Source: Microcystis aeruginosa NIES-843
GTDB taxonomy: Bacteria; Cyanobacteriota; Cyanobacteriia; Cyanobacteriales; Microcystaceae
Assembly: GCF_000010625.1 (NCBI RefSeq)
Contig: NC_010296.1
Location: forward strand, 630,001 to 662,000
Length of the DNA stretch: 32,000 nt
Direction of reading: 5' to 3'
Positions 500 through 32,000 of this stretch are shown here, piece by piece. Position numbers and translations under genes: made by a program. The notes beneath the pieces were generated by a model. It did no database searches, was not told the origin of the DNA, and was given only the letters and a program-made list of their open reading frames with translations. Position 1 is the first letter of the stretch. Every line of letters starts with the position of its first letter.

Positions 500-2664
500 C
501 CCACATTCCGCACCCTCAACTGTCACATAATACCAAATTTCTAAATCCATGACAGACATCCACGCTCGAATGCTTGCCAAGCCGGTGTTCGTTGTGACGC
601 GAATAAAGAAAAATGGTGTAAGCTGTCCCCCTCCAGAGACTTGAGTAAAAATACCTAGCTGGTGAAGGTTTTCTCGGTGGCCGCTAGGGGGGTCTTGAGA
701 CCCCTAATTATGAAAAAATAGGAATTGTTGGAAAACTGAGGCGAGTGGACTGTTCGACCATGAATCAATCAACAGAAATTGAAGTCAAAAATCTAGACCA
801 TCTGGGATTAGTAGCCGGAATTATCGATGAAATAGGAATCGTTGAAATTATCAACGAACAAGTCTCAATTGAGCGAGGAGAAATTGTCACAGCGGGGCAA
901 GTAGTGAAAGCAATTATCCTGAATGGATTGGGATTTGTCTCCCGAGCCTTGTATTTATTTCCTCAATTTTTTGAAGATAAAGCAACCGAACATCTGCTGG
1001 GAGAGGGCATCGAACCCAAGCACTTGAATGATGATAAAATTGGTCGAGTAATGGACAAACTTTATCAACTGGATGTTTCGGGTATTTTCCTACTCATCAG
1101 TTTAGCCGCCGTGAAAAAATTTGGTGTAGCAACCGAGAACTCCCATTTAGATTCGACTTCTCTATCAGTAGAAGGAGAATATAAAAAGGAATACCCAACA
1201 GTAGAAATCCTGAAATCAGGAGCAGTGGGAGAAGAAATTGAAACCAGACAACAGCCAATAAAAATTACCTACGGATACTCCCGCGACCGAAGACCTGACT
1301 TAAAACAATTTATGATTGACTTAATCGTAAGTGGGGATGGAGATGTACCTTTATTCCTGAAAGTAGGGGACGGAAATGAAGCGGACAAAGCGGTTTTTGG
1401 TCAAATCGCCCGAGAATTTAAAAAACAAGTTGACTTTGACAGTTTAATAGTCGGCGATAGCGCCCTCTATAGCAAAGAGAATTTAAAACTAATGAAAGAA
1501 ATGCGTTGGTTGTCTCGAGTACCATTAAGCATTAAAGAGGCTCAAGAGTTGGTTGATAGCATCTCAGAAAAAGAGTTAACCGATTCAGAAATACCGGGTT
1601 ATTCCTGGCGGGAAACCATCTCTAACTATGGGGGGATAGAACAAAGATGGTTGCTAGTTGAAAGTCAAGCTAGACAAGAATCAGACTTGAAAAAATTAGA
1701 GAAAAAAATCGAGCAGGAAAAGAATTCTGCCCAAGAAAAAATCCGGCAACTATCCCGAAGAGAATTTGAGAATAGAGCGGTGGCGTTGGCGATAGCCAAA
1801 GGATTATCTGACTCCTTAAAATCTCATCAGTTAACGGAGATTAAAGTCAATCTCATTCCGCCTGAGTCCCAGGGGTCAAAACTCAAATCAAAAGACGATT
1901 TACCCTCTCAAAGCTATCAAGTTCAAGCCGAATTAGAGTTGAATTTGACCGCCATTGAGAGGCTAAAGAAACGAGCAGGACGATTCGTTTTAGCAACTAA
2001 CGATTTGGAGAAACAACGATTAAGCAGTGAGGATATACTCAAAAAATATAAAGGGCAACAAGCTCCGGAAAGAGGATTTTCTTTTCTCAAAGACCCCTGC
2101 TTTTTTGCCCACAGTGTCTTTCTCAAATCTCCCCATAGAATCGAGGTCATGGCCATGCTCATGGGCTTGTGCCTGCTGGTTTATACTATTGGTCAAAGAC
2201 AACTTCGTTTAAGTTTAAAACAGCAGGAGACGGGACTGAAAAATCCGTTGGGTAAGTTAACTGACCGACCGACGTTACGCTGGATATTTCAGGGCTTTCA
2301 AGGGATTCATCTCGTCCGTATTCAAGACAATCAAAAGATTAGCAACTTAACGGATGAGAGGCGCAACATTTTGAGATTTTTTCCCAAACCTTGCCAGGAA
2401 TATTATCTCTTATCTTGACCAGATGGATTGACTTCAAGGGGTGACAAAACAAAGCGAGCAACTGGAACATCTCCCCCTAGATGTTAAGTCTGATTGCCTA
2501 GTCATTCTCAACAAGCACTGTTTATTGAGAATGACCGGGGGAACTCTGAAATTTTCGGCTTAGTTGCCGGCAGCTTGCCGCCAACTCACTCCTCTAGATA
2601 AGTATTTTGACTCACGCCCCTTCCTCTTTTGAGACGTTGTGACACTTAGGGTGCGGAATGTGGG
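500..2664 (+). mobile_element. IS1634-family (IS4 superfamily) insertion sequence
   Basis: Terminal inverted repeats 'cccacattccgcaccct' (500..516) and its reverse complement (2648..2664), extending imperfectly to about 26 bp. Flanked by a 7-bp direct repeat 'ttggtat' (493..499 and 2665..2671). Encodes one long transposase. Confidence 0.7.
745..2418 (+). CDS. IS1634-family DDE transposase
   Basis: 557-aa ORF. The N-terminus 'VKNLDHLGLVAGIIDEIGIVEIINE' is typical of the DUF4277 + IS1634 transposase architecture. The true start may be Met6 (nt 760). Confidence 0.85.
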   Translation: MDCSTMNQSTEIEVKNLDHLGLVAGIIDEIGIVEIINEQVSIERGEIVTAGQVVKAIILNGLGFVSRALYLFPQFFEDKATEHLLGEGIEPKHLNDDKIGRVMDKLYQLDVSGIFLLISLAAVKKFGVATENSHLDSTSLSVEGEYKKEYPTVEILKSGAVGEEIETRQQPIKITYGYSRDRRPDLKQFMIDLIVSGDGDVPLFLKVGDGNEADKAVFGQIAREFKKQVDFDSLIVGDSALYSKENLKLMKEMRWLSRVPLSIKEAQELVDSISEKELTDSEIPGYSWRETISNYGGIEQRWLLVESQARQESDLKKLEKKIEQEKNSAQEKIRQLSRREFENRAVALAIAKGLSDSLKSHQLTEIKVNLIPPESQGSKLKSKDDLPSQSYQVQAELELNLTAIERLKKRAGRFVLATNDLEKQRLSSEDILKKYKGQQAPERGFSFLKDPCFFAHSVFLKSPHRIEVMAMLMGLCLLVYTIGQRQLRLSLKQQETGLKNPLGKLTDRPTLRWIFQGFQGIHLVRIQDNQKISNLTDERRNILRFFPKPCQEYYLLS

Positions 2665-2839
2665 TTGGTATGGTTCGATCAGGGGGCATAAATAGGCTAA
2701 ATCCTTATCTGGCAAGAGACTTAATTGATTAGCTCGTTCTAGATTGAAAACAATTGGCAAAAATCGAAGCAATGTCTTTCTATATAAGGGTTTCATCCCT
2801 TATAACTCCCGTCCATTGCATAACACAAACCGAAGAACC

Positions 2840-2989
2840 GAAGAGATTTGCTCTATTGCTTCGGGAGCCGTTGAATCCACGGTTAAACAGATTGACCGAC
2901 GACTGAAAATTTCTGGAGCCCAGTGGAATGAAGAAAATATCCCTCAAGTGCTTAAACACCGCTGTGCTTACCTAAATAACAGTCTTTAG
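2840..2989 (+). pseudogene. ISKra4-like transposase, C-terminal fragment
   Basis: 'EEICSIASGAVESTVKQIDRRLKISGAQWNEENIPQVLKHRCAYLNNSL' matches the C-terminus of ORF 15770..16237. Deleting 480..2847 joins it in frame to 1..479, giving ..NYNYYQQEE|ICSIASG... Confidence 0.7.
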
Positions 2990-3041
2990 CTATTGAATAG
3001 TATTTATGTTCTGACAAAACTGACTTGCTCCCAGAGAGCAC

Positions 3042-3619
3042 CGCCTAAATCAGTCCCTGCCAGATTGCCCCCTTGCCGATTAGAATTATGTAAACGAGCG
3101 AGGCAAAATTTAGCATTAATTAGGGCTTGCTGAAAAAGTAGGGGCGAAGCATTCGGGCAATAACCTATCGCTGAAACCGTAGATTTCCTATCCGAATGCT
3201 TCGCCCCTAAAGGACGCAATCGCCGATGCAGATGCAAGGTTTTGAACCAAGATTCTCTCAAAACCTTGGACATATTTCGCACAAAAAAGCGACAGAACCC
3301 TTACCTCGTCTATATTTAACATTTATTCAGTAAGCCCTAATTAAAGTGGTATATTGTCAATTAATATAACCGAGATTAGCATGATCAACAAGGGCATTTT
3401 CTAGATTAGCATATTTTAAATTTGCCCCTTGAAAATTAGCTGCAATTAATCGACTATTTTTCAGGATAGAATGACTAAGATTAGCTCCCGTTAAGTTGGC
3501 ACCATCGATTAAAGCTCCTTCTAAGTTTGCCCCTTGCAGATTAGCCCCTTGTAGATCGGCACCGCATAAATACACTTTTTCTAAATTGGCTCCTTCTAGA
3601 TTAGCTCCTTTTAAATCGG
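3042..3619 (-). pseudogene. Pentapeptide-repeat protein gene remnant (truncated at both ends, MITE inside, in-frame TGA)
   Basis: A(D/N)LxG-type repeats ('GANLEGANLEK..GADLQGANLQGANLEGALIDGANLTGANL') run up to the MITE edge at 3620. 'AKFCLARLHNSNRQGGNLAGTDLGGA' runs up to the IS end at 3041. Removing 3123..3343 (221 nt) puts both parts in one frame, separated only by the TGA at 3357..3359. Confidence 0.55.
3123..3337. mobile_element. MITE with IS5/IS1182-type termini (non-autonomous relative of the IS at 20455..22136)
   Basis: Ends are 'gggcttgctgaaaaagt' and the reverse complement of 'gggcttactgaataaatg'. 6-bp direct repeat 'taatta' (3117..3122 and 3338..3343). Internal 16-bp perfect stem 'ggggcgaagcattcgg' (3141..3156) / 'ccgaatgcttcgcccc' (3192..3207). 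Confidence 0.65.
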
Positions 3620-3812
3620 CCGGGAGCATCTCACTTACGCGATAAGTAATTATACTTAGCCTAAAAGCCACTCTTAATCGTGTCTTGGAACGAAATAGAG
3701 GCTTTTAAAGACTGCGTACATGGAGAATTAAAACAAGAATTACCCTCGAAAAGCCTATTTTTCCACTAAGTATTTATGCTCATTGCAAAGGTGAGATGCT
3801 CCCACTGATCAC
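3620..3812. mobile_element. ~190-bp MITE derived from the ISKra4-like IS (both IS ends, no transposase)
   Basis: The left ~40 nt ('gggagcatctcacttacgcgataagtaattatacttag') aligns with the IS left end at 14080..14118. The right ~45 nt ('tatttatgctcattgcaaaggtgagatgctcccactgatcac') aligns with the IS right end at 16262..16301. Confidence 0.6.
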
Positions 3813-4408
3813 ACGATCATACTCAGAAGGCTTAGGAATAGCATATTCTCTTTCTTTATCAGAAGAAAATAGCTTAACAGAGCAAAAACTAACCATAACA
3901 ACTTATAGGAGAAAAAAATCCCCATCATTCCCAGTTGCCAATTTTCCAAAAATATTTTGAACACAGATACTTCTGAATGAGTTGCTAAGGCATTAGCCAT
4001 ACTTCCGCGTGTAGCAAACCAAATTAGAAGATAAAATAGGATGGCAAGTAAAGCTTGAAAAATTTCTTTTTTAGGAAAACAAAAAATAATTAGTGGCACA
4101 AGGGCAAATAGGCTAGATTCATGATTAAGTAAACAAAGAGCAATGACTGACATTCTTCCTTGACTACTCATGGGAATAATCGCCATTAAAAGGATTAAAA
4201 TAAAACTTATTTGATCCACATAACCAACCCAGATAAAATCAACCATTATATAGCTACTGGTAGCTAGGGATAAGTAGAATAAGAACTTCTGAGTTGGTGA
4301 TAGAGAAGATGCAGTCCACTGTTTTTGGGGATTATCAAGGTAACGAAAATATTTTCTAGCTTCAAAAAATATTAAAGTTATCCAGATAAGTAGGTAGGTG
4401 TTGACCAA
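3809..4408 (-). CDS. Hypothetical polytopic membrane protein (boundaries uncertain)
   Basis: 199-codon ORF, very hydrophobic, AT-rich. The track start is TTG with no Shine-Dalgarno sequence. The frame stays open upstream to a TAA at 4490..4492, and the last codon and stop lie in the MITE terminal repeat. It may be a fragment. Confidence 0.35.
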   Translation of the reverse strand: MVNTYLLIWITLIFFEARKYFRYLDNPQKQWTASSLSPTQKFLFYLSLATSSYIMVDFIWVGYVDQISFILILLMAIIPMSSQGRMSVIALCLLNHESSLFALVPLIIFCFPKKEIFQALLAILFYLLIWFATRGSMANALATHSEVSVFKIFLENWQLGMMGIFFSYKLLWLVFALLSYFLLIKKENMLFLSLLSMIV

Positions 4409-4484
4409 AGAGAAAATATAGTAAAGAAAAAAACCTCTGAATTGTAAAAAGTAAGCAATGAAAGGTTTTAAAATTCTGCGATAA

Positions 4485-4575
4485 TAAGCTTAGACGCACT
4501 TACATTGCACTTTAATATCCTGGAACGCCTTGTAGATAGGGATACGAGTAGGAAACTTAAATGCGTCTAAGCTTA
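4485..4575. repeat. 14-bp perfect inverted repeat bounding a ~63-nt spacer
   Basis: 'taagcttagacgca' (4485..4498) and 'tgcgtctaagctta' (4562..4575). Confidence 0.6.
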
Positions 4576-4725
4576 CCAGCCTGTATTTTCCAAAAAAGGG
4601 TCTCTAGTCATTCTGCCATATTCTATTCCCATTCCCGATAGCCCATATACATTTGAATTTAATCCTTCGGGATAAGAGTAAGGAAATAAGTACCTAAGCA
4701 AAATTAATTACACATTTCGATCAAG

Positions 4726-4754
4726 CTTTTGCCTTTTGCCTCTTGCCTTTTGCC
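4726..4754. repeat. Heptanucleotide tandem repeat (CTTTTGC)x4, one variant unit
   Basis: 'cttttgc cttttgc ctcttgc cttttgc', immediately 3' of the minus-strand ORF ending at 4754. Confidence 0.7.
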
Positions 4755-5185
4755 TATCCTAACCAAGAAATTAATTTTGCACGACTACTTACTAGCAGAG
4801 ACAAAATAATAAATATAATTAATGCCACGCAAGCTAAATATCTAATTTTTATCTTTTTCCAAACCGATTTAGAATTAAATAAATCGATAATTAATGGTGA
4901 TATTATTATCAAAAATGAGACAGAAAATAGTAACCCTTTCAGAGGAATTAAAATTTGATACAGGATAGTATTTTGCAGGGATGTTACATTCAGATATTCT
5001 TTGAAAATACTCAATAACTTAGTTAAAGCCCCTGATAATTTATCCTTAGGAGCATTAACTATACAATAGGAAATAATAATAGCACTCCACAGAAGTACAT
5101 TGCTTATGGCAACATTAGGAACATAAGTATTAAAAGATACGTACTTTCTGTACCTTTCCGATAAGGGGGCTGTGAAGATATTCAA
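4754..5185 (-). CDS. Hypothetical membrane protein
   Basis: 143-codon hydrophobic ORF. It has a TTG start preceded by a strong Shine-Dalgarno sequence (minus strand 'ccAGGAGGtaatattTTG', plus-strand coordinates about 5186..5203). Confidence 0.5.
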   Translation of the reverse strand: MNIFTAPLSERYRKYVSFNTYVPNVAISNVLLWSAIIISYCIVNAPKDKLSGALTKLLSIFKEYLNVTSLQNTILYQILIPLKGLLFSVSFLIIISPLIIDLFNSKSVWKKIKIRYLACVALIIFIILSLLVSSRAKLISWLG

Positions 5186-5485
5186 ATATTACCTCCTGGA
5201 TTTAAAACTATAAGGGTATATATAAACTCGATTTAAATCTGCTGTAAATTGCCCTAGAGCCTAATTTTATGAGTTCTGACAAGGAACGATGGTAGAAAAA
5301 ATAAATCGATAAACTGCGCTAGTATTTAGCCCCAAACCTCAAATCATTTTGCTTTTCCTCGTCTTATTTGTTATGAACTTATATATTTCCGTACATATTA
5401 TGTTCAATAGCACTGACAAAATATAAATTTTATTTCTGAATTGTAATCAGAGTCATCGAGATTGACAATGAGTATAAACACTTAA

Positions 5486-5803
5486 TTATTTCGGACTTAT
5501 GATTTTCTCCCCTTTCTCTGTTTCCTTTTTGGCTAAAATTGCCTGACGAAAACCTAAGACGACGAGAATATTGGAGAGGGTGAGGAAAAGTTCGGCGCTG
5601 CCGTGTAACCAATCGACGTTGGCTAATTCTTGACCATAGTGGATTTTGGCGTAGATACCGGCAGGAATGGTGATAAAAACGAAGATTAACAGCACATAAA
5701 AGCCAATTAGGGCTAAAAGAGGCATTTTTCCCGAACGAGTGACAAACCAAAGAAACCCCAGATAGGGAAACAGGGAAATGGCAAATAAACTCTCTTTATT
5801 CAT
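5486..5803 (-). CDS. Small membrane protein, DUF3593-like
   Basis: The likely start is the internal ATG at 5803 ('MNKESLFAISLFPYLGFLWFVTRSG..'), which overlaps the upstream stop in 'ATGAATAA'. The family is assigned from memory of the cyanobacterial ycf49/DUF3593 gene pair. Confidence 0.6.
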   Translation of the reverse strand: MNKESLFAISLFPYLGFLWFVTRSGKMPLLALIGFYVLLIFVFITIPAGIYAKIHYGQELANVDWLHGSAELFLTLSNILVVLGFRQAILAKKETEKGEKIISPK

Positions 5804-19155: not shown

Positions 19156-20248
19156 TATAGTTTAAGAGTCATAATTAGAAGCAAAGCACTCATTAAAAAC
19201 ATGATTAACCTAGAATTCACGGAAGAAGAAAAGAACTCACTGTATTATGAAAGATTTCATCATCCCCATCCCCGGGTTCAACTGAAGATGGAAGTTCTCT
19301 GGTTAAAAAGCCAAAAGATACCGCACCAAAAAATTTGTCAGTTAGCAGGAATCTCGCCAAATACCTTATTAACCTATCTTCGAGATTATCAAGAGGGCGG
19401 AATAGAAAAATTAAAAGAAATCAACTTCTATCGCCCTAAAAGTGAATTAGAGTCTCAAAGAGAAACGCTCAAAAAATATTTCGAGAAAAATCCACCAGCC
19501 ACAATAAATGAAGCTGTATATAGAAGAGAAGAATTGACAGGAATAAAACGAAGTCCTACCCAAGTGAGAAAATTCTTAAAATCCTTGGGAATGAAATGTT
19601 TAAAAATAGGTTCTCTTCCTTCTAAAGCTGACCCAGATGAACAAGAAGAATACAAAGAAAAAAAGCTAGAACCCAGACTAAATGAGGCTAAAGAAGGAAA
19701 AAGGGCTGTTTTTTTTGTTGATGCCGCTCACTTCGTCATGGGAGCATTTCTCGGTTTTGTTTGGTGTTTTGAGAGACTTTTTGTTAAGTCACCGAGCGGG
19801 CGTAAACGCTTCAATGTTTTAGGAGCATTAAATGCAATAACTCATGAAGTTATTCTGGTTACGAATGACACTTATATTACGGCAACTCAAGTCTGTGAAC
19901 TCCGGTCAAAAATAGCTGCTTTAGGACTAATGATTCCCATCACTCTAGTCTTAGATAATGCCCGCTATCAAAAATGTCAAATTGTTGAAGAATTAGCTCT
20001 TTCTTTGTCAATAGAACTGCTCTATCTGCCGTCTTATTCACCTAATCTAAATTTAATTGAAAGGCGGTGGAAATTTGTCAAAAAGAAATGTTTATATGGT
20101 AAATATTATGAAAACTTTTCTGACTTTTCTTCAGCCATTTATGAATGTTTGAATGATGCCCATTTGAAACATAAAAAAGAACTGGATTCCTTGCTGACTC
20201 TACGATTTCAGAAGTTTAATAAATCTCAGATTATGAACGTCTAAAGTA
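19111..20248 (+). mobile_element. IS630-family insertion sequence, apparently intact
   Basis: Termini are 'tactttgcacg' and the reverse complement of 'tactttagacg'. TA flanks both sides (19109..19110 and 20249..20250). 1138 bp with one 347-aa transposase. Confidence 0.7.
19201..20244 (+). CDS. IS630-family DDE transposase
   Basis: 347 aa. N-terminal HTH region, then 'FFVDAAHF', 'LVLDNARYQK' and 'YSPNLNLIERRWKFVKK' motifs. Confidence 0.85.
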   Translation: MINLEFTEEEKNSLYYERFHHPHPRVQLKMEVLWLKSQKIPHQKICQLAGISPNTLLTYLRDYQEGGIEKLKEINFYRPKSELESQRETLKKYFEKNPPATINEAVYRREELTGIKRSPTQVRKFLKSLGMKCLKIGSLPSKADPDEQEEYKEKKLEPRLNEAKEGKRAVFFVDAAHFVMGAFLGFVWCFERLFVKSPSGRKRFNVLGALNAITHEVILVTNDTYITATQVCELRSKIAALGLMIPITLVLDNARYQKCQIVEELALSLSIELLYLPSYSPNLNLIERRWKFVKKKCLYGKYYENFSDFSSAIYECLNDAHLKHKKELDSLLTLRFQKFNKSQIMNV

Positions 20249-20308
20249 TAGAAAAGTAATTTTGACCGACTGATCCCCCTGCCCTCCTTATCAAGGTGGG
20301 GTTGACTC

Positions 20309-20450
20309 ATAAGACCTCTTGCAAAAGTCTTAAGTCGATCCTTGTACAGCAACATTTTTGAAGATTATCAACTACTAATAAATAATTAACTGAAAGTCCT
20401 TCCCATTATTGTTTCTATCGTTTGTTTTCGGATTTATGCAAGAGGTCTAT
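20309..20450. mobile_element. MITE-like element (12-bp perfect terminal inverted repeats)
   Basis: 'agacctcttgca' (20312..20323) and 'tgcaagaggtct' (20437..20448). AT-rich interior with no ORF. Confidence 0.45.
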
Positions 20451-20454
20451 AGTA

Positions 20455-22136
20455 GGGTTTGCTGAAAAAGTCATTGAAAAGTACAGGTCTCTTAATCAAT
20501 GATTTCACTTAGCTACAAGCATAAGCTTTAGTTGTTGATTAATTTTTAAGTTATAACTTATCCTAATCATTGACCGAGAAAAAGTGCTGTTTTTCCATTT
20601 CAGACATAAAAAAGCCCAAAAAACCTGCCTCAACAGGTTAGAAAGATTCATGACTAAAAAAGTAATAGCAATCGCTGAAAAGGAAGTATGAGGAAGTTTA
20701 GCCATCACTTTACCTAAGCTAAATCTTCTTTTCCCTTGTCCAAATTTGCCCTCTATACAATTCCGAATCCTCTCATCATCAGTAGCTTGTTTCTTTTGTT
20801 CTTTACTAACATTTTTGGCTGGTCTTCCTAATGGGGGACCACTGATTCTGATTCCCCTTTCTTTACACCAAGCTCGGTTTTCTCTGGTTCGATAAATTTT
20901 GTCCACATGAACTGATTCTGGATAGTATCCTGTATAGTCATAATAAGCTTCTATTTGTGCTTTTAAATCTCCCGATTCATTAAAGTTATCCCAACTAATC
21001 CGGTCTAAAAATATGTAACCATCTATACAGCTTGCTGAGAATTTGGCCCCAAATTCTACGGGTTTTCCAGCTTTTCCTCTGACTATCGGACGGATGTGGG
21101 GTTGAGTTAAGCTGACAATTCTGTCTTCAATACTCTGTTTGTTATTTTGGTACATCCAGAGTTGTTGACGATAAACTTCTGTGACTACTAACAACAGTTT
21201 ATAGTCTCTTTTTTTCAAGCTTTGTAGAGAGGCTCCTTCTGCTAAAAGTTGTTCAATATGGTCGAGATTTCTTTTCAGATATTGCAGCTGTTTTTTCAGG
21301 GCTTTTCGTCTTTGTTTGACGGTAGGTTTTCTTTTTTTCGCTACTTCTAAATAACTTTTTCTGGCTAGAAGACGATAGGTTCTCGGTTTTTGAACAAGTT
21401 TTCCTTTTAAAGTTTCCTAGAGAATATCAATAATTTTTTCGGTTTGTTTTCTTCCTTGATTTAACAGGTTTAAATCCGTAGGATAACTAATATCTGCGGG
21501 CGCACAACTGGCATCTAAAATTAATTTACCTCGATTTTCTGGTTGACTTTGGGTTTCGCTCTCTAACTTTTTTTCGGTGTTTTCTTCTTCTTTTATTTCT
21601 CTCGAATTTTTGACCATAAAGCGATTCACTTTATTAATTAGTTCCCGAGTGATTCTTTCTCGAAAGTGAACCAACATTGACGCTTCAAACCGGGGTTCAT
21701 TGCTGTAGGATGAAAACCCCAAGAAGTATTGTAAATAAGGATTTTCTTTGATTTGTTCTACCGTTTCTCTATCGCTTGTTCCTAATTTTTCTTTAATAAT
21801 TAATGCTCCTAGTGCTGTCCTAAATGTTTTGGCGGGTGCGCCCATTTCTTCTGAAAAAAGTGATGCGTATTCCGCTTCAAATTCTGACCAGGGAATGAGG
21901 TTGGCCATAATTACCCAACGATTATCTTGGGATAATTTCCCCTCAAAGGGCAGCTCGAAGTTTTCTGGTGGGGTTGAGGGTAACTCGCTTTTACGGTACA
22001 TTAGCACTAATTAGAGAAGATGCAAGGGTGATGCAAGGGTTTTAAGAGATTCTAGCAGATTTAAGTGCATTTGGGAAGCTCTCAATCAAGCTAAAAGCCC
22101 TTTCCTGTAAGGTTTTTAGATTTATTCAGCAAACCC
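20455..22136 (-). mobile_element. IS5/IS1182-family insertion sequence (autonomous-type relative of the three MITEs)
   Basis: Ends are 'gggtttgctgaaaaagtc' and the reverse complement of 'gggtttgctgaataaatctaaaaacc'. Direct repeat 'tatagta' (20448..20454 and 22137..22143). Confidence 0.75.
20505..22007 (-). pseudogene. IS5/IS1182-family transposase with a single in-frame TAG
   Basis: ORFs 21417..22007 (InsH-like N-terminal domain, 'RWVIMANLIPWSEFE..ALIIKEKLGTSDRE..NPYLQYFLG') and 20505..21218 (DDE C-terminal part) are in the same frame. My translation of 21219..21416 is open, and the only interruption is the TAG at 21417..21419. Confidence 0.75.
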
Positions 22137-27200: not shown

Positions 27201-28805
27201 CCCCCACCCCACCACGATATCTACTCGATTGAAGACCTCGCGGAGTTGATTCATGACCTAAAAAATGCCAATCGCGCGGCGAGAGTGAGCGTAAAACTGG
27301 TTTCTGAGGTGGGAGTTGGCACAATCGCCGCCGGAGTCGCTAAAGCTCACGCCGACGTGGTTTTAATCTCTGGTTTCGATGGTGGGACCGGTGCCTCACC
27401 GCAAACCTCGATTAAACACGCGGGTTTACCCTGGGAGTTGGGACTAGCAGAAACCCATCAAACATTGGTGTTAAATAATCTTCGCAGTCGCATTGCGGTG
27501 GAAACCGATGGCCAGATGAAAACCGGCCGCGATGTGGTGGTGGCGACCCTATTGGGGGCCGAAGAATTCGGTTTTTCCACCGCGCCACTGGTAACGTTAG
27601 GCTGTATTATGATGCGGGTTTGTCATCTTAATACCTGTCCGGCGGGGGTAGCGACCCAGGATCCGTTATTACGGAAGAATTTCATCGGGGATCCTGAATA
27701 TACGGTGAATTTCATGAAATTTATCGCCCAGGAAGTGCGGGAAATTATGGCCGAATTGGGATTCCGCACCTTAAATGAAATGGTGGGGCGAACTGATGTA
27801 TTAGAGCCGAAACAGGCTGTAGAACATTGGAAAGCGAAAGGAATTGACCTAACTCCGATTCTCTATCAACCGGAGGTAGCTCCAGAGGTAGGACGCTATT
27901 GCCAGATTCCCCAGGACCACGGTTTAGATAAGTCCTTGGATATAACCGTTTTACTGGATTTATGCAAAGATGCCATTGAAAAAGGCGAAAAAGTCAAGGC
28001 GACACTACCGATTAAAAATATTAACCGCGTGGTGGGGACGATTTTAGGCAACGAAATCACTAAACGTCACTGGGGGGGTTTACCCGAAGATACCGTACAT
28101 CTCCATTTTCAGGGCAGCGCGGGGCAGAGTTTCGGTGCTTTTGTTCCCAAAGGGGTGACACTGGAGTTAGAAGGGGATGCTAATGATTATGTGGGTAAGG
28201 GTTTAAGTGGTGGCAAAATCATCGTTTATCCGCCCAAAGGTTCCACTTTTGTGGCCGAGGAGAATATTATCATCGGTAACGTGGCTTTATACGGCGCGAC
28301 CAGTGGTGAGGTGTATATTTCTGGGGTTGCTGGGGAACGTTTTGGGGTGCGTAACTCTGGGGTGACTACGGTGGTTGAGTCCGTTGGCGACCACGCTTGC
28401 GAGTATATGACTGGGGGTAAAGTCGTTGTTTTAGGGCCCACCGGTCGCAATTTCGCCGCCGGGATGAGTGGTGGTGTCGCCTACGTCCTCGACGAGTCGG
28501 GGGATTTCGCCACTCGTTGCAATACCCAAATGGTGGCTTTAGAGGCGCTAGAAGCGGAAGAAATCGACGATTTACGCGAGTTAATTCAACGCCATGCTGA
28601 TTACACCCAAAGTCAAAAAGCGGCATTGGTTTTAGCAAATTGGTCGGAAATGTTGCCCAAGTTTGTTAAAGTAATGCCCAAGGATTATAAGCGGATGTTG
28701 CAGTGTATTAAAGAGGCGTTAGATTCCGGTTTAACCGGCGATTCTGCCCTCGATGCGGCTTTTGAAGCCAACGCCCGCGATGTGGCAAGGATTGGCGGCA
28801 GTTAG
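24231..28805 (+). CDS. glsF: Ferredoxin-dependent glutamate synthase (Fd-GOGAT)
   Basis: 1524 aa. N-terminal 'HDACGVGFI' amidotransferase Cys, FMN/3Fe-4S region '[27 protein letters not shown]', and C-terminal GXGXG beta-helix domain. A single polypeptide with no NADPH subunit adjacent. Confidence 0.95.
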
Positions 28806-28813
28806 AGTTTCAT

Positions 28814-28840
28814 GGGGGCTTATTCAGCCCCCTTGTTTAT
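28814..28840 (+). terminator. Rho-independent terminator candidate for glsF
   Basis: Stem 'gggggc' (28814..28819) / 'gccccc' (28827..28832), loop 'ttattca', followed by 'ttgtttatt', beginning 9 nt after the stop codon. Confidence 0.6.
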
Positions 28841-28871
28841 TCCTGTGGTTATTCTGATAAATTGTTAGTAT

Positions 28872-29459
28872 TCAACCTTCCTTTTCGCTTTGGTATTGAA
28901 AAGGTAAAGCAATTCTGCCATGAAAATTATAAAATCTTTTAGAAAAATGTTCTAGATAAGGACTACTTAATATCGTTCTTCGTTTCGCCATACCAATTTC
29001 TAGTTGACGATATATTGTTTTAGAATCTAGCCCAAAAACCTTTTTAAAGTCAGCCGTTAGTTCTTGAACCCCTTCATTTTGTAGATCACAGTTATTAGGA
29101 ATTTTTTCAAAAAAATAATATCTTTCATCTCGCTGAGTTTTTATTAAGTTCCACGCGTCAGTCTTCCTAACTATATCTTTAATTTCTTGTGCTGACGATA
29201 TCTCACAAAAGATTATAGAGTTTAGTAACTTATGAGGCTGATTAATATCAGGTTGTCTAGCTTGGTAATCCCAATCTAAATCACAATCTTGAGAGACTAC
29301 AATGACAAAAGGATGTAAAATAGGATCAAAAGCAACATCTTCTGATTCTTGAGATAGATCACTGGCAACTGGATTATATTGAATTACATCAGTAAGTATT
29401 TCTCCTTGTCTCAACGCACTTCCTTCAATCGATTTTTTATAAATGATGTGATCGGCCAT
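28872..29459 (-). CDS. Hypothetical protein, third gene of the AT-rich operon
   Basis: 195-aa ORF 20 nt downstream of the preceding ORF. No family was recognised. Contains 'HPFVIVVSQDCDLDWDY'. Confidence 0.55.
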   Translation of the reverse strand: MADHIIYKKSIEGSALRQGEILTDVIQYNPVASDLSQESEDVAFDPILHPFVIVVSQDCDLDWDYQARQPDINQPHKLLNSIIFCEISSAQEIKDIVRKTDAWNLIKTQRDERYYFFEKIPNNCDLQNEGVQELTADFKKVFGLDSKTIYRQLEIGMAKRRTILSSPYLEHFSKRFYNFHGRIALPFQYQSEKEG

Positions 29460-29479
29460 AAAACATCCAGACTAACAAA

Positions 29480-29857
29480 TTATGGTTCTAAAATAATAGG
29501 TTGTCTAATCTGTATCGCTCTCAATTTACCTCTAATACTACTGGCTGGAATTACAGGTACAATTTTCTCAGGACTAAGATTAGAATAAAAACTCGCAATG
29601 TCTTCCAGTTGTGTTACCGATTCATCTAACGCATCTTCAGGAAGAGACTGTAATATTAACAGACATTTAATAAGTGCAATTAATTTGTCTTGAGGAAATT
29701 CTCTCCAATGAGTTGTTAAAGACAAGGAAGAGTCAGACATCGTGAGATCGAAACTAGGATAGTTTCCAGTTATCGTTCTACCAGCTTTTCTATCAATTAA
29801 CAAATTTACTAGAAAATCACCAGTTGAGGTTTGACTTTTGTTAGGACGGATCGACAT
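29480..29857 (-). CDS. Hypothetical protein, second gene of the AT-rich operon (start uncertain)
   Basis: The track ORF runs to 29959, overlapping the upstream gene by 119 nt. The internal ATG at 29857 ('MSIRPNKSQ..') reduces the overlap to 17 nt. No family was recognised. Confidence 0.4.
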   Translation of the reverse strand: MSIRPNKSQTSTGDFLVNLLIDRKAGRTITGNYPSFDLTMSDSSLSLTTHWREFPQDKLIALIKCLLILQSLPEDALDESVTQLEDIASFYSNLSPEKIVPVIPASSIRGKLRAIQIRQPIILEP

Positions 29858-30632
29858 TGGTCGGTCGTAATGCGTCGTGGAGAGTTTCGCTAATACTGCA
29901 CCGGAAGAGCTTTCTGGCGGATTTGTTGAAGCTATCGAGTATGTTCCAGACATTTTCATCCCTCGCTATTTTTCTTTCTGTGTAAAAATCTGCATCTAAT
30001 AGATAGGCTTCCTCTTCATCATTTGCTTTAGTATTTTCAACATATACTAATCCATGATTAAAATTCACCTGTCCATTATCTACTTTCAAAACCAAACTCT
30101 TGTTTATCGATTGAATAGATGCAGAAAAATCAGAATCGTAAAGTTCTGAAGCAATTCTTCTTGTGATTAGCTCTGACCACTTTTTACTCTCTAATTGTAG
30201 TTCGGAACGTACAATTAAATCTCGATATCTCAATCCAACTCTTGTGTAAAAAGATGGTTTATATATTCTTTCAAAAATTGTAACTGCGAACTCCAATTTT
30301 TCCCTGAAATATTCGTATCTTTCGTATGCAGATGTCGTGAGCGCAATCAAATCTTTATCAACAGCTAACTTCCATTTTTGATCTTCTGATTTAAAAATAT
30401 AGGCACTATTGTTAGGTAGCGGCAAATTAAATTGTTGAACGACCTTGGCAATTTCAGGAGGTATCTGTGGTTGAGTACGTTCAAAAAGTGGATATTGAAA
30501 TCTGATCTCATCTTGAAATTCAACAGGTTCTTGATGAGATATTTTTAATATAGGTGGAAAGGTCAATTGACAAACCACCTCGAATAATGGATTGTACTCG
30601 TAAATGACACGATCAAACTCTGGTAGTTTCAT
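29841..30632 (-). CDS. TIGR04255-like protein of unknown function, first gene of the AT-rich operon
   Basis: 263 aa. The N-terminal 'YEYNPLFEVVCQLTFPPILKI' and the ~260-aa length match my recollection of the TIGR04255 family. Not verified by search. Confidence 0.6.
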   Translation of the reverse strand: MKLPEFDRVIYEYNPLFEVVCQLTFPPILKISHQEPVEFQDEIRFQYPLFERTQPQIPPEIAKVVQQFNLPLPNNSAYIFKSEDQKWKLAVDKDLIALTTSAYERYEYFREKLEFAVTIFERIYKPSFYTRVGLRYRDLIVRSELQLESKKWSELITRRIASELYDSDFSASIQSINKSLVLKVDNGQVNFNHGLVYVENTKANDEEEAYLLDADFYTERKIARDENVWNILDSFNKSARKLFRCSISETLHDALRPTNVDPS

Positions 30633-30667
30633 TGACTCATGCTAATCTATGTAATGCTTGCATGGCA

Positions 30668-30697
30668 ATTATACCATAAAACGACAACGATTGACAA
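30668..30697 (-). promoter_or_regulatory. Sigma70-type promoter candidate for the three-gene operon
   Basis: Minus strand reads 'TTGTCA-(18 nt)-tgg-TATAAT'. The -35 is the reverse complement of 30692..30697 and the -10 is the reverse complement of 30668..30673, with a TGn extended -10. It lies about 35 nt upstream of the ATG at 30632. Confidence 0.4.
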
Positions 30698-31132
30698 TAT
30701 TTAGTAATATTTTAATAAAATGGCAGCGGTTTCGCCTGTATTATATCTATCTTTACACAAATAAACCCAAATAATTTTTTACATCTAATTGTCTGAATAT
30801 TTAAAAATCAATATTTAAAATATATTAAAAAAGTCGAATAAAAATTGAAAAGACGACTTGTGCTATAAAAACTCAAAAGGGATGATAGTGTCGAGTTTTC
30901 CGATAGGTTGGGAAAAACGATTACTGTTGTCACCATGGCCGAAAATTCCCTCCGTTTCCCCACCCACGAGGATCGACCTTGACCCTACAGGACTGATATT
31001 TTCCCATCTTTAGCAGAATATCGGCATCTAGAAGAGGGTGCGATCGCACGGCAGTTATAGTTGAGAGGGTGTGTTACACTAGCCTTAAGGCACTGTGTAG
31101 GCCGTAATCGAATTACTTCTCAACAATCCATT

Positions 31133-31381
31133 ATGATAAAAAATCTACGAGTTAGTTATGATGGAATGGTTTTCCGTCCCGAAGAAAAGATTGAATTAGA
31201 ACCCAATACCCATTACATCATCCAAATTATTTCTCGGGAAGATCCACTAGAAAATAACCATAAAAATGCTTGGGAACTGTTAGAAGAAATGGCTGGCACC
31301 TATGAAGCTCCAGAAGATTGGTCAAGGGAACACGATCATTATTTATATGATACTCCCAAAAGAAATATAAGCGATGAATAA
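31133..31381 (+). CDS. Putative antitoxin, AF2212/DUF104-like
   Basis: The start is taken at 'MIKNLRVSYDGMVFRPEEKIELEPNTHYIIQI', which resembles the DUF104 pattern 'YENGVFKPLE.V.L.EG..V.I'. Overlaps the PIN gene by 8 nt. Confidence 0.55.
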   Translation: MIKNLRVSYDGMVFRPEEKIELEPNTHYIIQIISREDPLENNHKNAWELLEEMAGTYEAPEDWSREHDHYLYDTPKRNISDE

Positions 31382-31784
31382 GTCCAAACTTTTTTTAGAT
31401 ACGGTCTTTATCCAAGCAATTCTCAATCCTCATGATCAATATCATCAAATTGCTATGCAGTTCCTCCCCTATGTAAAAAATGCAACAGCAGTTTGGGTTA
31501 CTGAAGCCATTTTTATGGAGGTTGGTAATGCTCTTAGTCATTACAATCGTCCTAAGGTTTCTGCCTTTATCAAGCAATGCTATCAAACCGATAATTTATT
31601 CGTTGTTACTATCACTTCTACTCTTTTTCAAAAAGGCTTAAAGCTCTACGAATCAAGAGCTGATAAAAGCTGGGGATTAGTAGATTGTTTTTCTTTTATT
31701 GTTATGGAAGAAAATCAAATTACCGACGCTTTAACTTCAGATGTTCATTTTATTCAAGCAGGTTTTCAAGCTTTACTACGATAA
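31374..31784 (+). CDS. PIN-domain toxin (VapC-like)
   Basis: 136 aa. 'LFLDTVFIQAILNPHDQYH', 'VTEAIFMEVGN' and 'LVDCFSFIVMEE..ALTSDVHF' fit the spacing of PIN acidic residues. Confidence 0.7.
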   Translation: MNKSKLFLDTVFIQAILNPHDQYHQIAMQFLPYVKNATAVWVTEAIFMEVGNALSHYNRPKVSAFIKQCYQTDNLFVVTITSTLFQKGLKLYESRADKSWGLVDCFSFIVMEENQITDALTSDVHFIQAGFQALLR

Positions 31785-32000
31785 TTAATTAGCGATCACC
31801 ATTTAGTTAAAGATATAATTTTACGGCAAGCGCGAAGATGAAAGGACTTTCTAGGCCGATAATTTCTCGATTCTAACCGATCGAAGCCCGGAAGGTGTAG
31901 GCGAACCGAAAACCCTCTCCATTAAGGACCCGTGTTAAAATCGTTAATCATGCTATTGTCTAGAAGCGACCTATGCCGAACTTAACCTTAAGCAATGAAC

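Follow-up and report, generated by a model that had tools for sequence, protein, structure and literature searches.

What kind of system do the three adjoining genes form that lie beside glsF on the chromosome of Microcystis aeruginosa NIES-843? We addressed this question for a stretch of 32,000 nt (the window; contig NC_010296.1, positions 630,001 to 662,000). An earlier note on this DNA had described the genes as a compact operon and a candidate accessory or defence module. Three open reading frames (ORFs) do lie on the minus strand where that note placed them (263 aa, at most 159 aa and 195 aa), and here they are called g1 (29841..30632), g2 (29480..29959 at its maximal extent) and g3 (28872..29459). 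The 20 nt that it gave for the distance between g2 and g3 in the window is borne out by the sequence. The trio is passed on as one unit, and the cassette that it forms moves between phyla. We tentatively read it as a mobile toxin-antitoxin-like or abortive-defence cassette, in which g1 would be a sensor, g2 an inhibitor or adaptor and g3 an effector. The features on which the argument turns are the following.

29841..30632, minus strand: g1, 263 aa, a protein of the TIGR04255 family and candidate sensor or scaffold
29480..29953, minus strand: g2, 157 aa (159 aa when read from the ATG at 29959), candidate inhibitor or adaptor of g3
28872..29459, minus strand: g3, 195 aa, candidate effector with a single domain, from a large family that has no name
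29841..29953, minus strand: dual-coding stretch of 113 nt, with the g1 C-terminus in frame 0 and the N-terminal tail of g2 in frame +1
29268..29291, minus strand: codons of the invariant g3 loop Q57-D-C-D-L-D-W-D64, a candidate active site that directly follows a predicted beta-strand and opens a helix

One genome per species was scanned with an alignment of g3, which gave 77 loci, and the three proteins of the window were run against these loci by tblastn. In 72 of the loci g1 precedes g3. The complete g1-g2-g3 set, with order and strand kept, is present in 67 of the 77 loci, which had been found through g3 alone, and most of the incomplete loci are cut by contig ends. The hosts belong to the Cyanobacteria, Chloroflexi, Acidobacteria, Planctomycetes and Gammaproteobacteria, with in addition a partial contig of the Methylomirabilia. 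The spacing between g2 and g3 ranges from -35 to +28 nt, and is mostly 3-23 nt. No flanking family occurs in more than 7 loci; there is therefore no conserved fourth gene that could count as a further component, and the context is not conserved. The co-inheritance on which the earlier note had made its proposal depend is thus found in at least five phyla and between unrelated flanks, and homology to housekeeping families, which it had named as a point against, turned up for none of the three proteins.

The identity values point to movement across large distances. Copies from Methyloglobulus (Gammaproteobacteria) share 59-62% (g1) and 55-57% (g3) identity with the Microcystis proteins, compared to 52-56% and 50-56% for copies from the Nostocales. 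Because the gammaproteobacterial proteins are nearer to those of Microcystis than the proteins of fellow cyanobacteria are, the cassette must have been transferred between phyla. Two genomes, of Calothrix (L031) and Dulcicalothrix (L035), carry g2 and g3 without g1, and an intact g3 without g2 was not seen among the loci. A degraded g3 is present at one locus (L070), and at a locus of the Bryobacteraceae (L074, 4735-6000) an insertion of approximately 1.27 kb separates g2 from an N-terminally truncated g3. In Dulcicalothrix (L035, 3641-5227), the 528-aa ORF 5' of g2 and g3 ends in SAGQLFR, the C-terminal motif of g1, and may represent a g1 remnant fused to another gene.

The second feature of the cassette is the position of the g2 start. 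The earlier note had given an overlap of at least 17 nt with g1, which corresponds to a start at the ATG at 29857. The overlap is real but far longer: the comparison with 67 related loci puts the true start at 29953 or 29959 and the overlap at 113-119 nt. The start in the window that is homologous to those elsewhere is the ATG at 29953, with GAGGGA upstream, yielding a protein of 157 aa and a conserved overlap of 113 nt. Frame 0 of this stretch encodes the conserved C-terminal helices of g1 (..LFRCSISETLHDALRP..), and the first approximately 38 residues of g2, which are rich in Ser and Thr, are encoded within g1. The Ser/Thr-rich tail is probably disordered. Between assemblies with identical Microcystis loci (L084-L087), the length that gene callers assign to g2 varies (157, 125 or 86 aa); annotation pipelines therefore mishandle the gene.

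With respect to g1, g2 is read in the +1 frame at every locus. Over the last 40 codons of g1, stops in this frame have a frequency of 0.1-2% per codon (71 sequences). Over these codons the +2 frame has 7-8%, and the remainder of g1 has roughly 2-18% in the +1 frame, with most values at 3-9%. When the g1 tail was shuffled synonymously, the +1 frame stayed open in only 26% of trials on average. In 63 of 68 cassettes the open frame is headed by an ATG located 104-131 nt before the g1 stop. This ATG is formed by a g1 codon NAT together with the G that follows it. The required T is used in 62 of the 63 loci, versus 64% at other NAY codons, and among loci above 50% G+C it is used in 26 of 27, versus 54%. 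A Shine-Dalgarno motif (GGAG, GAGG or AGGA, 3-18 nt 5' of the g2 ATG) is present in 79% of the loci; the same motif is found at 10% of control positions within g1, 14% of g1 starts and 19% of g3 starts. The five exceptions form a subgroup of the Nostocales, in which g2 restarts 4-16 nt past the g1 stop and stops are now present in the old overlap.

Variability at synonymous sites of g1 is lower in the overlap than outside it in the distant group (0.763 versus 0.913, p 4e-5); for the cyanobacterial core group the difference is not significant (0.664 versus 0.705, p 0.2). The open frame and the start signals are thus strongly constrained, and the sequence of the g2 tail weakly. There is no sign of RNA folding that would hide or uncover the start of g2 (unpaired probability 0.444, versus 0.432 at controls; p 0.6).

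An overlap of this kind could also reflect programmed +1 ribosomal frameshifting, which would fuse residues 1 to about 225 of g1 to g2 instead of starting g2 independently. The constant +1 frame of g2, the approximately 38 open codons ahead of the g1 stop and the weak amino-acid constraint on the overlapped tail in the cyanobacterial core group are all compatible with this. In prfB-type frameshifting the shift site is conserved and the downstream frame has no start of its own; here an ATG heads the open stretch in 63 of 68 loci, by way of NAT in 62 of 63, and the Shine-Dalgarno motif precedes it in 79%, versus 10% at the controls. Moreover, the Nostocales subgroup has shifted its g2 start beyond the g1 stop, and no common slippery site was noticed in the translations, for which no dedicated scan was run. 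We therefore consider frameshifting very unlikely; separate initiation of g2 fits the data better.

Overprinting, in which genes overlap over a long stretch in different frames, is familiar from viruses, and bacterial operons rarely have it as a conserved feature. Most long gene overlaps in bacteria are due to mis-annotation of start codons. The g1/g2 overlap resembles overprinting in that one stretch of DNA is read in two frames, of which the newer encodes a low-complexity Ser/Thr-rich tail. It differs in that its 104-131 nt hold a Shine-Dalgarno motif and ATG of their own, and in that it is retained over at least five phyla as well as on plasmid and viral contigs. Because the signals for starting g2 are retained along with the overlap in at least five phyla, the nested start is not a product of mis-annotation. 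The conserved start nested over 104-131 nt is an unusual feature.

The g3 protein is the candidate effector. A word-indexed search returned 520 homologues without Pfam domains, and an exhaustive HMMER search gave 1,196 clusters at 50% identity (E ≤ 1e-3), nearly all of them single-domain proteins of 185-230 aa. The loop from Q57 to D64 follows a hydrophobic strand and is invariant among 65 sequences from several phyla, as are residues R17, Q18, E20, Y150, R160, R182 and P186. C59 and D60, together with the preceding hydrophobic strand, recur in the more distant third genes described below, as SQSCDI, SHDCDV and TQTCDI. No significant match was obtained for g3 in Pfam, NCBIfam, PHROGs or PADLOC, and the matches of its profiles to PDB chains were at chance level, as were those of the profile of the distant third genes. 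Structure prediction, based on an alignment of 55-98% identity, yielded a weak model (pLDDT 66 for the best of five, 35-40 for the other four). The fold is thus uncertain; in the PDB, Foldseek places the pLDDT-66 model closest to MazF, from both S. aureus and E. coli and with TM 0.53-0.63 on the target, and to CcdB. Any resemblance to the SH3-like barrel of these toxins would be weak.

For g2, a word-indexed search found five homologues, all from Microcystis. The middle ORFs of all loci can nevertheless be aligned in their C-terminal halves and form one g2 family, with the motif LP..AL.E..E.L..I..FY ... I.G.......RPP..L in that half. Significant matches in Pfam, NCBIfam, PHROGs or PADLOC are absent for g2 as well. 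The statement of the earlier note that genes 2 and 3 belong to no named family therefore stands for Pfam, NCBIfam and PADLOC; they are not orphans, since g2 forms one family and g3 the 1,196 clusters above. Neither Pfam nor hhalign with the g2 profile detected a DNA-binding or helix-turn-helix (HTH) domain in g2 of the branch to which the window belongs, and a relation to the XRE-type HTH proteins was rejected (hhalign probability 0.1% with the HTH second gene of a Vibrio array). Residues 139-149 of g2, PASSIRGKLRA (29510-29545), resemble the RAMP motif of Cas7/Csm3 over about 16 residues (E 0.01-0.16 in PADLOC and NCBIfam) and fall in the conserved I.G...... part of the family motif. This resemblance was rejected as probably due to chance, since a single short motif accounts for the matches to the related PADLOC models (E 0.01-0.04).

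The similarity of gene 1 to TIGR04255, as proposed in the earlier note, proved to extend over the full length of the family. g1 scores 170.8 bits against the NCBIfam model (E 4.7e-50; cut-off 30), and its residues 11-255 align to profile positions 2-251 of 252. NCBIfam describes the family as 'sporadically distributed' and of unknown function, public records use its name for g1 homologues, and a full-text search of the paper library consulted returned none mentioning it. There is no significant match of g1 in Pfam, and a search of PDB chains gave chance-level matches, with no solved close relative. AlphaFold2 predicts a large antiparallel beta-sheet with long helices behind it (pLDDT 88.4). 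The best-conserved segment, LFRW[SC]I..LH.AM.P, is encoded by the g1/g2 overlap, and the model has a pLDDT of 94-97 over residues 221-260. Fold matches are remote (E 2e-4 to 1e-2) and comprise the catalytic domain of McsB/arginine kinase, S-adenosylmethionine decarboxylase (AdoMetDC) and the TATA-binding protein (TBP), the latter again among viral models. They superpose poorly (TM 0.27-0.39, rmsd 9-18 Å), and the predicted likeness to the TBP and guanidino-kinase folds would concern general architecture only. A weak Pfam match to PDDEXK_6 (E 0.05) is not supported by the predicted fold and was rejected. TIGR04255 has thus been a name without a function; what is new here is that its members head arrays of two or three genes on mobile DNA, and that in one large clade the g1-type gene harbours the start of the next gene.

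Relatives of g1, unlike those of g3, do occur in plasmid and phage records. TIGR04255 genes at 31-40% identity retain the nested start of the second gene but are followed by other third genes, namely a type with a GLTC[AS]T motif (on a Rhizobium plasmid, in Burkholderia phages and on an IMG/VR contig) and a type of 138 aa; there is also a two-gene form. On Rhizobium plasmid pCB3060_2 (L078), the second gene begins within the TIGR04255 gene (35% identity), with an overlap of 104 nt in the +1 frame, and is itself followed by a third. This array adjoins an operon of multiubiquitin, ThiF-type E1 and DUF6527 genes, upstream at 2174-4471, and IS110 and ISNCY transposase genes lie downstream. The region resembles an island of accessory systems.

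In seven P2-like phages of Burkholderia, a TIGR04255 gene (31% identity) heads an array of three genes. A toprim-domain gene of the replication type and an integrase gene flank the array on one side, and a toxin/antidote pair and the portal gene on the other. The interval between the replication gene gpA and the portal gene gpQ is the antiviral hotspot of P2 (Rousset et al., 2022; PMC9122126). By analogy, the Burkholderia interval would correspond to this hotspot, with the toprim gene as the putative equivalent of gpA.

Six IMG/VR contigs carry g1 relatives of 33-40% identity, all with a +1-frame ATG 104-122 nt before the g1 stop. One has a third gene of the g3 type (VVIVSQDCDL), one has the GLTCATF type and one encodes an unrelated protein of 138 aa; on another, the second gene is of the g2 type and the ORF behind it (157 aa) is unclassified. 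Two contigs (L092 and L093, 5001-6462) hold only a long nested second gene of 261 aa, with no third gene on the same strand, and may represent a version of the system with two genes. Immediately 5' of the array, these two contigs carry a DEAD/ResIII helicase gene. Throughout, the type of g2 switches along with that of g3. The alternative third genes (L078 6500-7156, L079 6321-7031 and L094 2542-3237) share the motifs H.(A/W)WH, GLTC[AS]T(F/Y) and D(T/S)W, which suggests a Cys/His enzyme that is possibly papain-like. They have no match in Pfam or PADLOC, and hhalign showed no kinship of g3 with the third genes of Rhizobium and Burkholderia.

At still lower identity (26-30%), TIGR04255 genes are found on plasmids of Chroococcidiopsis, Vibrio, Acinetobacter and Gloeocapsa. 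Here they are followed by a gene for an XRE-type HTH protein (matching HTH_3, HTH_19 or Xre-like-HTH) and one for a protein of 274-305 aa, with ordinary overlaps of 4-10 nt or a gap of 119 nt. Three motifs are colinear between g3 and these third proteins, [LW].QG.., hhhh[ST][QH].CD[ILV] and R.[AG][LF]P..[FY], and hhalign of the g3 profile against their alignment gave P 2.9e-4 over 149 columns. Beyond generic HTH similarity, none of the Rhizobium, Burkholderia-phage, Vibrio, Chroococcidiopsis and Gloeocapsa arrays matched a PADLOC model. Second and third genes are thus exchanged among TIGR04255 arrays.

The setting of the cassette in Microcystis is rich in toxin-antitoxin (TA) genes. An identical g3 protein is encoded in complete genomes of M. 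aeruginosa (CP020664.1, CP191409.1, CP086723.1 and others), and the trio sits within a run of PIN, PIN_3, DUF4926, DUF5615/DUF433 and NTP_transf_2/HepT genes. The gene content of the run varies by strain in L084-L088 (equivalent to window 30633-32000 and further); the trio and glsF are fixed. The Microcystis copies are chromosomal, without an integrase gene within 8 kb. Among the 130 nearest neighbours elsewhere are type I restriction subunits (3), type I specificity subunits (2), type IIG enzymes (2), MADS components (up to 4), TniQ (3) and PIN proteins (3). The defence setting proposed by the earlier note thus holds insofar as TA and restriction genes are nearby, but most immediate neighbours elsewhere are unrelated to defence. 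The DUF104-like/PIN pair that it named beside the trio was seen as well, with scores below the Pfam thresholds (AF2212-like, E 0.0054; PIN, E 0.0031).

Two further features of the window concern transcription of the trio.

30668..30697, minus strand: promoter-like site of the sigma-70 type, TTGTCA-N18-(TG)TATAAT, approximately 35 nt 5' of the g1 ATG
28814..28832, strand not specified: G+C-rich hairpin between the convergent genes glsF and g3, with a stem of 7 bp that includes 6 G-C pairs

The near-consensus promoter announced upstream of the operon was recovered as the top-ranking site within 28600..31400, with 11 of 12 matches and the TG extension; the number of promoter-like sites in the region is at chance level (9 observed versus 9.7 expected). 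The convergent glsF also has a terminator of its own, as had been proposed, in the form of the hairpin at 28814..28832. This has a T-rich tail on the plus strand and no T-run on the minus strand, and could terminate the g3 transcript too. The best explanation for the block is a single, operon-like transcription unit. On the other side, g1 is separated from the divergent AF2212-like/PIN pair by a spacer of 428 nt (30633-31060, G+C 0.353), which must house the promoters of both. An Rfam search found no RNA family anywhere in the window, including this spacer.

The G+C content is 0.344 for the three-gene block, 0.414 for the window and 0.489 for glsF. The block thus lies under the local mean and is AT-rich, as claimed, but it is neither unique nor an extreme outlier: 3.6% of windows of the same size are equally low, and the lowest elsewhere in the window reaches 0.328. 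The choice of glsF as comparator in the earlier note overstates the contrast. Two further stretches of the window (4001-5500 and 20001-21000) are equally AT-rich, with a G+C content of 0.31-0.35.

How, then, should the trio be read? We tentatively favour a self-contained and horizontally mobile conflict cassette of three proteins that would act as an abortive or defence module of the TA type. In this scheme g3 would be an effector enzyme with the invariant Gln-Asp-Cys-Asp loop as its active site. The strongest ribosome-binding site in the operon is that of g2, which would serve g3 as a dedicated inhibitor or adaptor; as g3 follows 5-23 nt behind, g2 would be produced in amounts no lower than those of g3. 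The conserved upstream component g1, for which a beta-sheet saddle is predicted, may be the sensor of the trigger or the scaffold of a complex. We infer these roles, as well as g3 toxicity, neutralisation by g2 and any anti-phage effect; for the latter it is the genomic context that is suggestive. The reading of a mobile conflict cassette rests on the inheritance of the genes as a unit and their movement between phyla, on the exchangeable downstream genes behind a constant first gene, and on the placement among TA, restriction and prophage-hotspot genes. It rests further on the strong ribosome-binding site of g2 with g3 closely coupled to it, and on the survival of g2 and g3 without g1.

Several properties connect the arrays to multi-gene anti-phage systems. 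As in those with a constant sensor and exchangeable effectors, the first gene is constant and the downstream genes vary, and the Burkholderia array, flanked by the toprim-domain gene and the portal gene, recalls the systems carried in the P2-like hotspot (PMC9122126). Array neighbours include restriction-modification, MADS and ubiquitin-like operons. The arrays differ from the known systems in that no PADLOC v2.0.0 model was matched, and in that the branch of the window is chromosomal and rarely found on phages or plasmids. Mobile multi-gene defence or TA cassettes are familiar as a kind; this family appears to be unnamed. With somewhat more reserve, we consider it possible that the TIGR04255-led arrays together make up a large unnamed superfamily of modular conflict systems, each with a constant sensor and an exchangeable adaptor and effector, in which one major clade (at least five phyla, plasmids and temperate phages) has kept the nested adaptor start, with the ribosome-binding site, start codon and first approximately 38 codons of the adaptor embedded in the best-conserved segment of the sensor gene. 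The nested start may set the ratio of sensor to adaptor, or serve as a conserved joint at which effector modules are swapped.

A number of results weigh against a mobile conflict cassette. None of the three components matches any of the 5,027 models of PADLOC-DB v2.0.0, and none matches a PHROG of known function. Searches of 72,556 plasmids and 50,697 phage records yielded no cassette of the g3 type; its single viral occurrence, on an IMG/VR contig, came from the scan with g1, and the scan with a g3 pattern found none. All five Microcystis assemblies inspected carry the trio at the same site next to glsF, without presence/absence polymorphism. By family counts, an estimated 10-15 of the 130 neighbours are recognisably related to defence or mobility, and the remainder look metabolic or regulatory. 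Finally, the match of g3 to the MazF/CcdB fold is weak (E 0.2-0.3, probability 0.75), Pfam shows no PemK_toxin or CcdB match for g3 at E ≤ 1, and hhalign of the g3 profile with MazF-family and CcdB sequences gave a probability below 1%. As neither Pfam nor hhalign supports it, this resemblance is a lead only.

The main rival is a plain addiction or stabilisation module without a role against phages, in which g3 would be the toxin, g2 the antitoxin and g1 a regulator or chaperone. Tripartite TA systems of this composition are known, and there are similarities to these and to the type II systems MazEF and CcdAB. A small partner gene lies closely ahead of a protein of about 200 aa, in the order and spacing of antitoxin and toxin, and carries the strongest ribosome-binding site (79% versus 19% for g3). 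The layout of adjacent co-directional genes with short spacing and a seemingly better-translated partner is that of a generic type II TA system. The cassette sits in a run of TA pairs in Microcystis, g2 and g3 persist without g1 in L031 and L035, and the XRE-type HTH second gene of the distant arrays weakly matches the HTH of Xre-like antitoxins. The best fold matches of g3, weak as they are, point the same way. On the other hand, g3 is nearly double the size of MazF and CcdB, both toxins lack its invariant Q-D-C-D-x-D-W-D loop, and there is no PemK/MazF Pfam match or profile-profile signal. g2 of the window's branch has no recognisable DNA-binding fold. The 263-aa first gene is the best-conserved and most constant part of the array, which is unusual for an accessory regulator, and third-gene swaps behind a constant first gene are more typical of sensor-effector immune systems. 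On balance, we think that a plain addiction module is rather unlikely, and the combined TA-like or abortive-defence cassette remains our preferred reading.

A module that regulates a mobile element, for instance one resembling the ImmR/ImmA switches in which a sensor, a repressor and a protease would govern induction or transfer, appears improbable to a much greater degree. It would account for the XRE-type HTH second gene in distant TIGR04255 arrays, for the integrase gene directly beside two of the arrays (on the Chroococcidiopsis plasmid and in the Burkholderia phage) and for the invariant Cys that the third proteins have in common. It does not agree with the lack of an HTH in g2 of the window's branch, nor with the near absence of the g3-type cassette from phage and plasmid collections. 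Integrases also do not feature among the nearest-neighbour families of the 67 loci, and the Microcystis copies are chromosomal, next to glsF and, within 8 kb, without an integrase gene. Least credible of all is an ordinary accessory metabolic or stress operon whose low G+C content and neighbours are coincidental: the metabolic or regulatory neighbours elsewhere, the enzymes among the remote fold matches of g1 (guanidino kinases and AdoMet decarboxylase) and the fixed position in the inspected Microcystis genomes would suit it, but the distribution over phyla is patchy and does not track host relationships, there is no conserved metabolic partner gene, the second and third genes are exchangeable, and relatives occur on conjugative plasmids and in a prophage interval matching the P2 hotspot.

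If the trio is indeed a conflict cassette, a widespread family (approximately 1,200 g3 clusters at 50% identity) would join the bacterial conflict systems, with a reach from bloom-forming Microcystis to soil Acidobacteria and Chloroflexi. Its components are missed by Pfam (g2 and g3) and by PADLOC v2.0.0 (all three), the sole defence-annotation database tested. The name TIGR04255 would gain a context, that of the leader of mobile two- and three-gene arrays, and the nested start of g2 offers a clean natural example of a long and ancient dual-coding overlap in bacteria.

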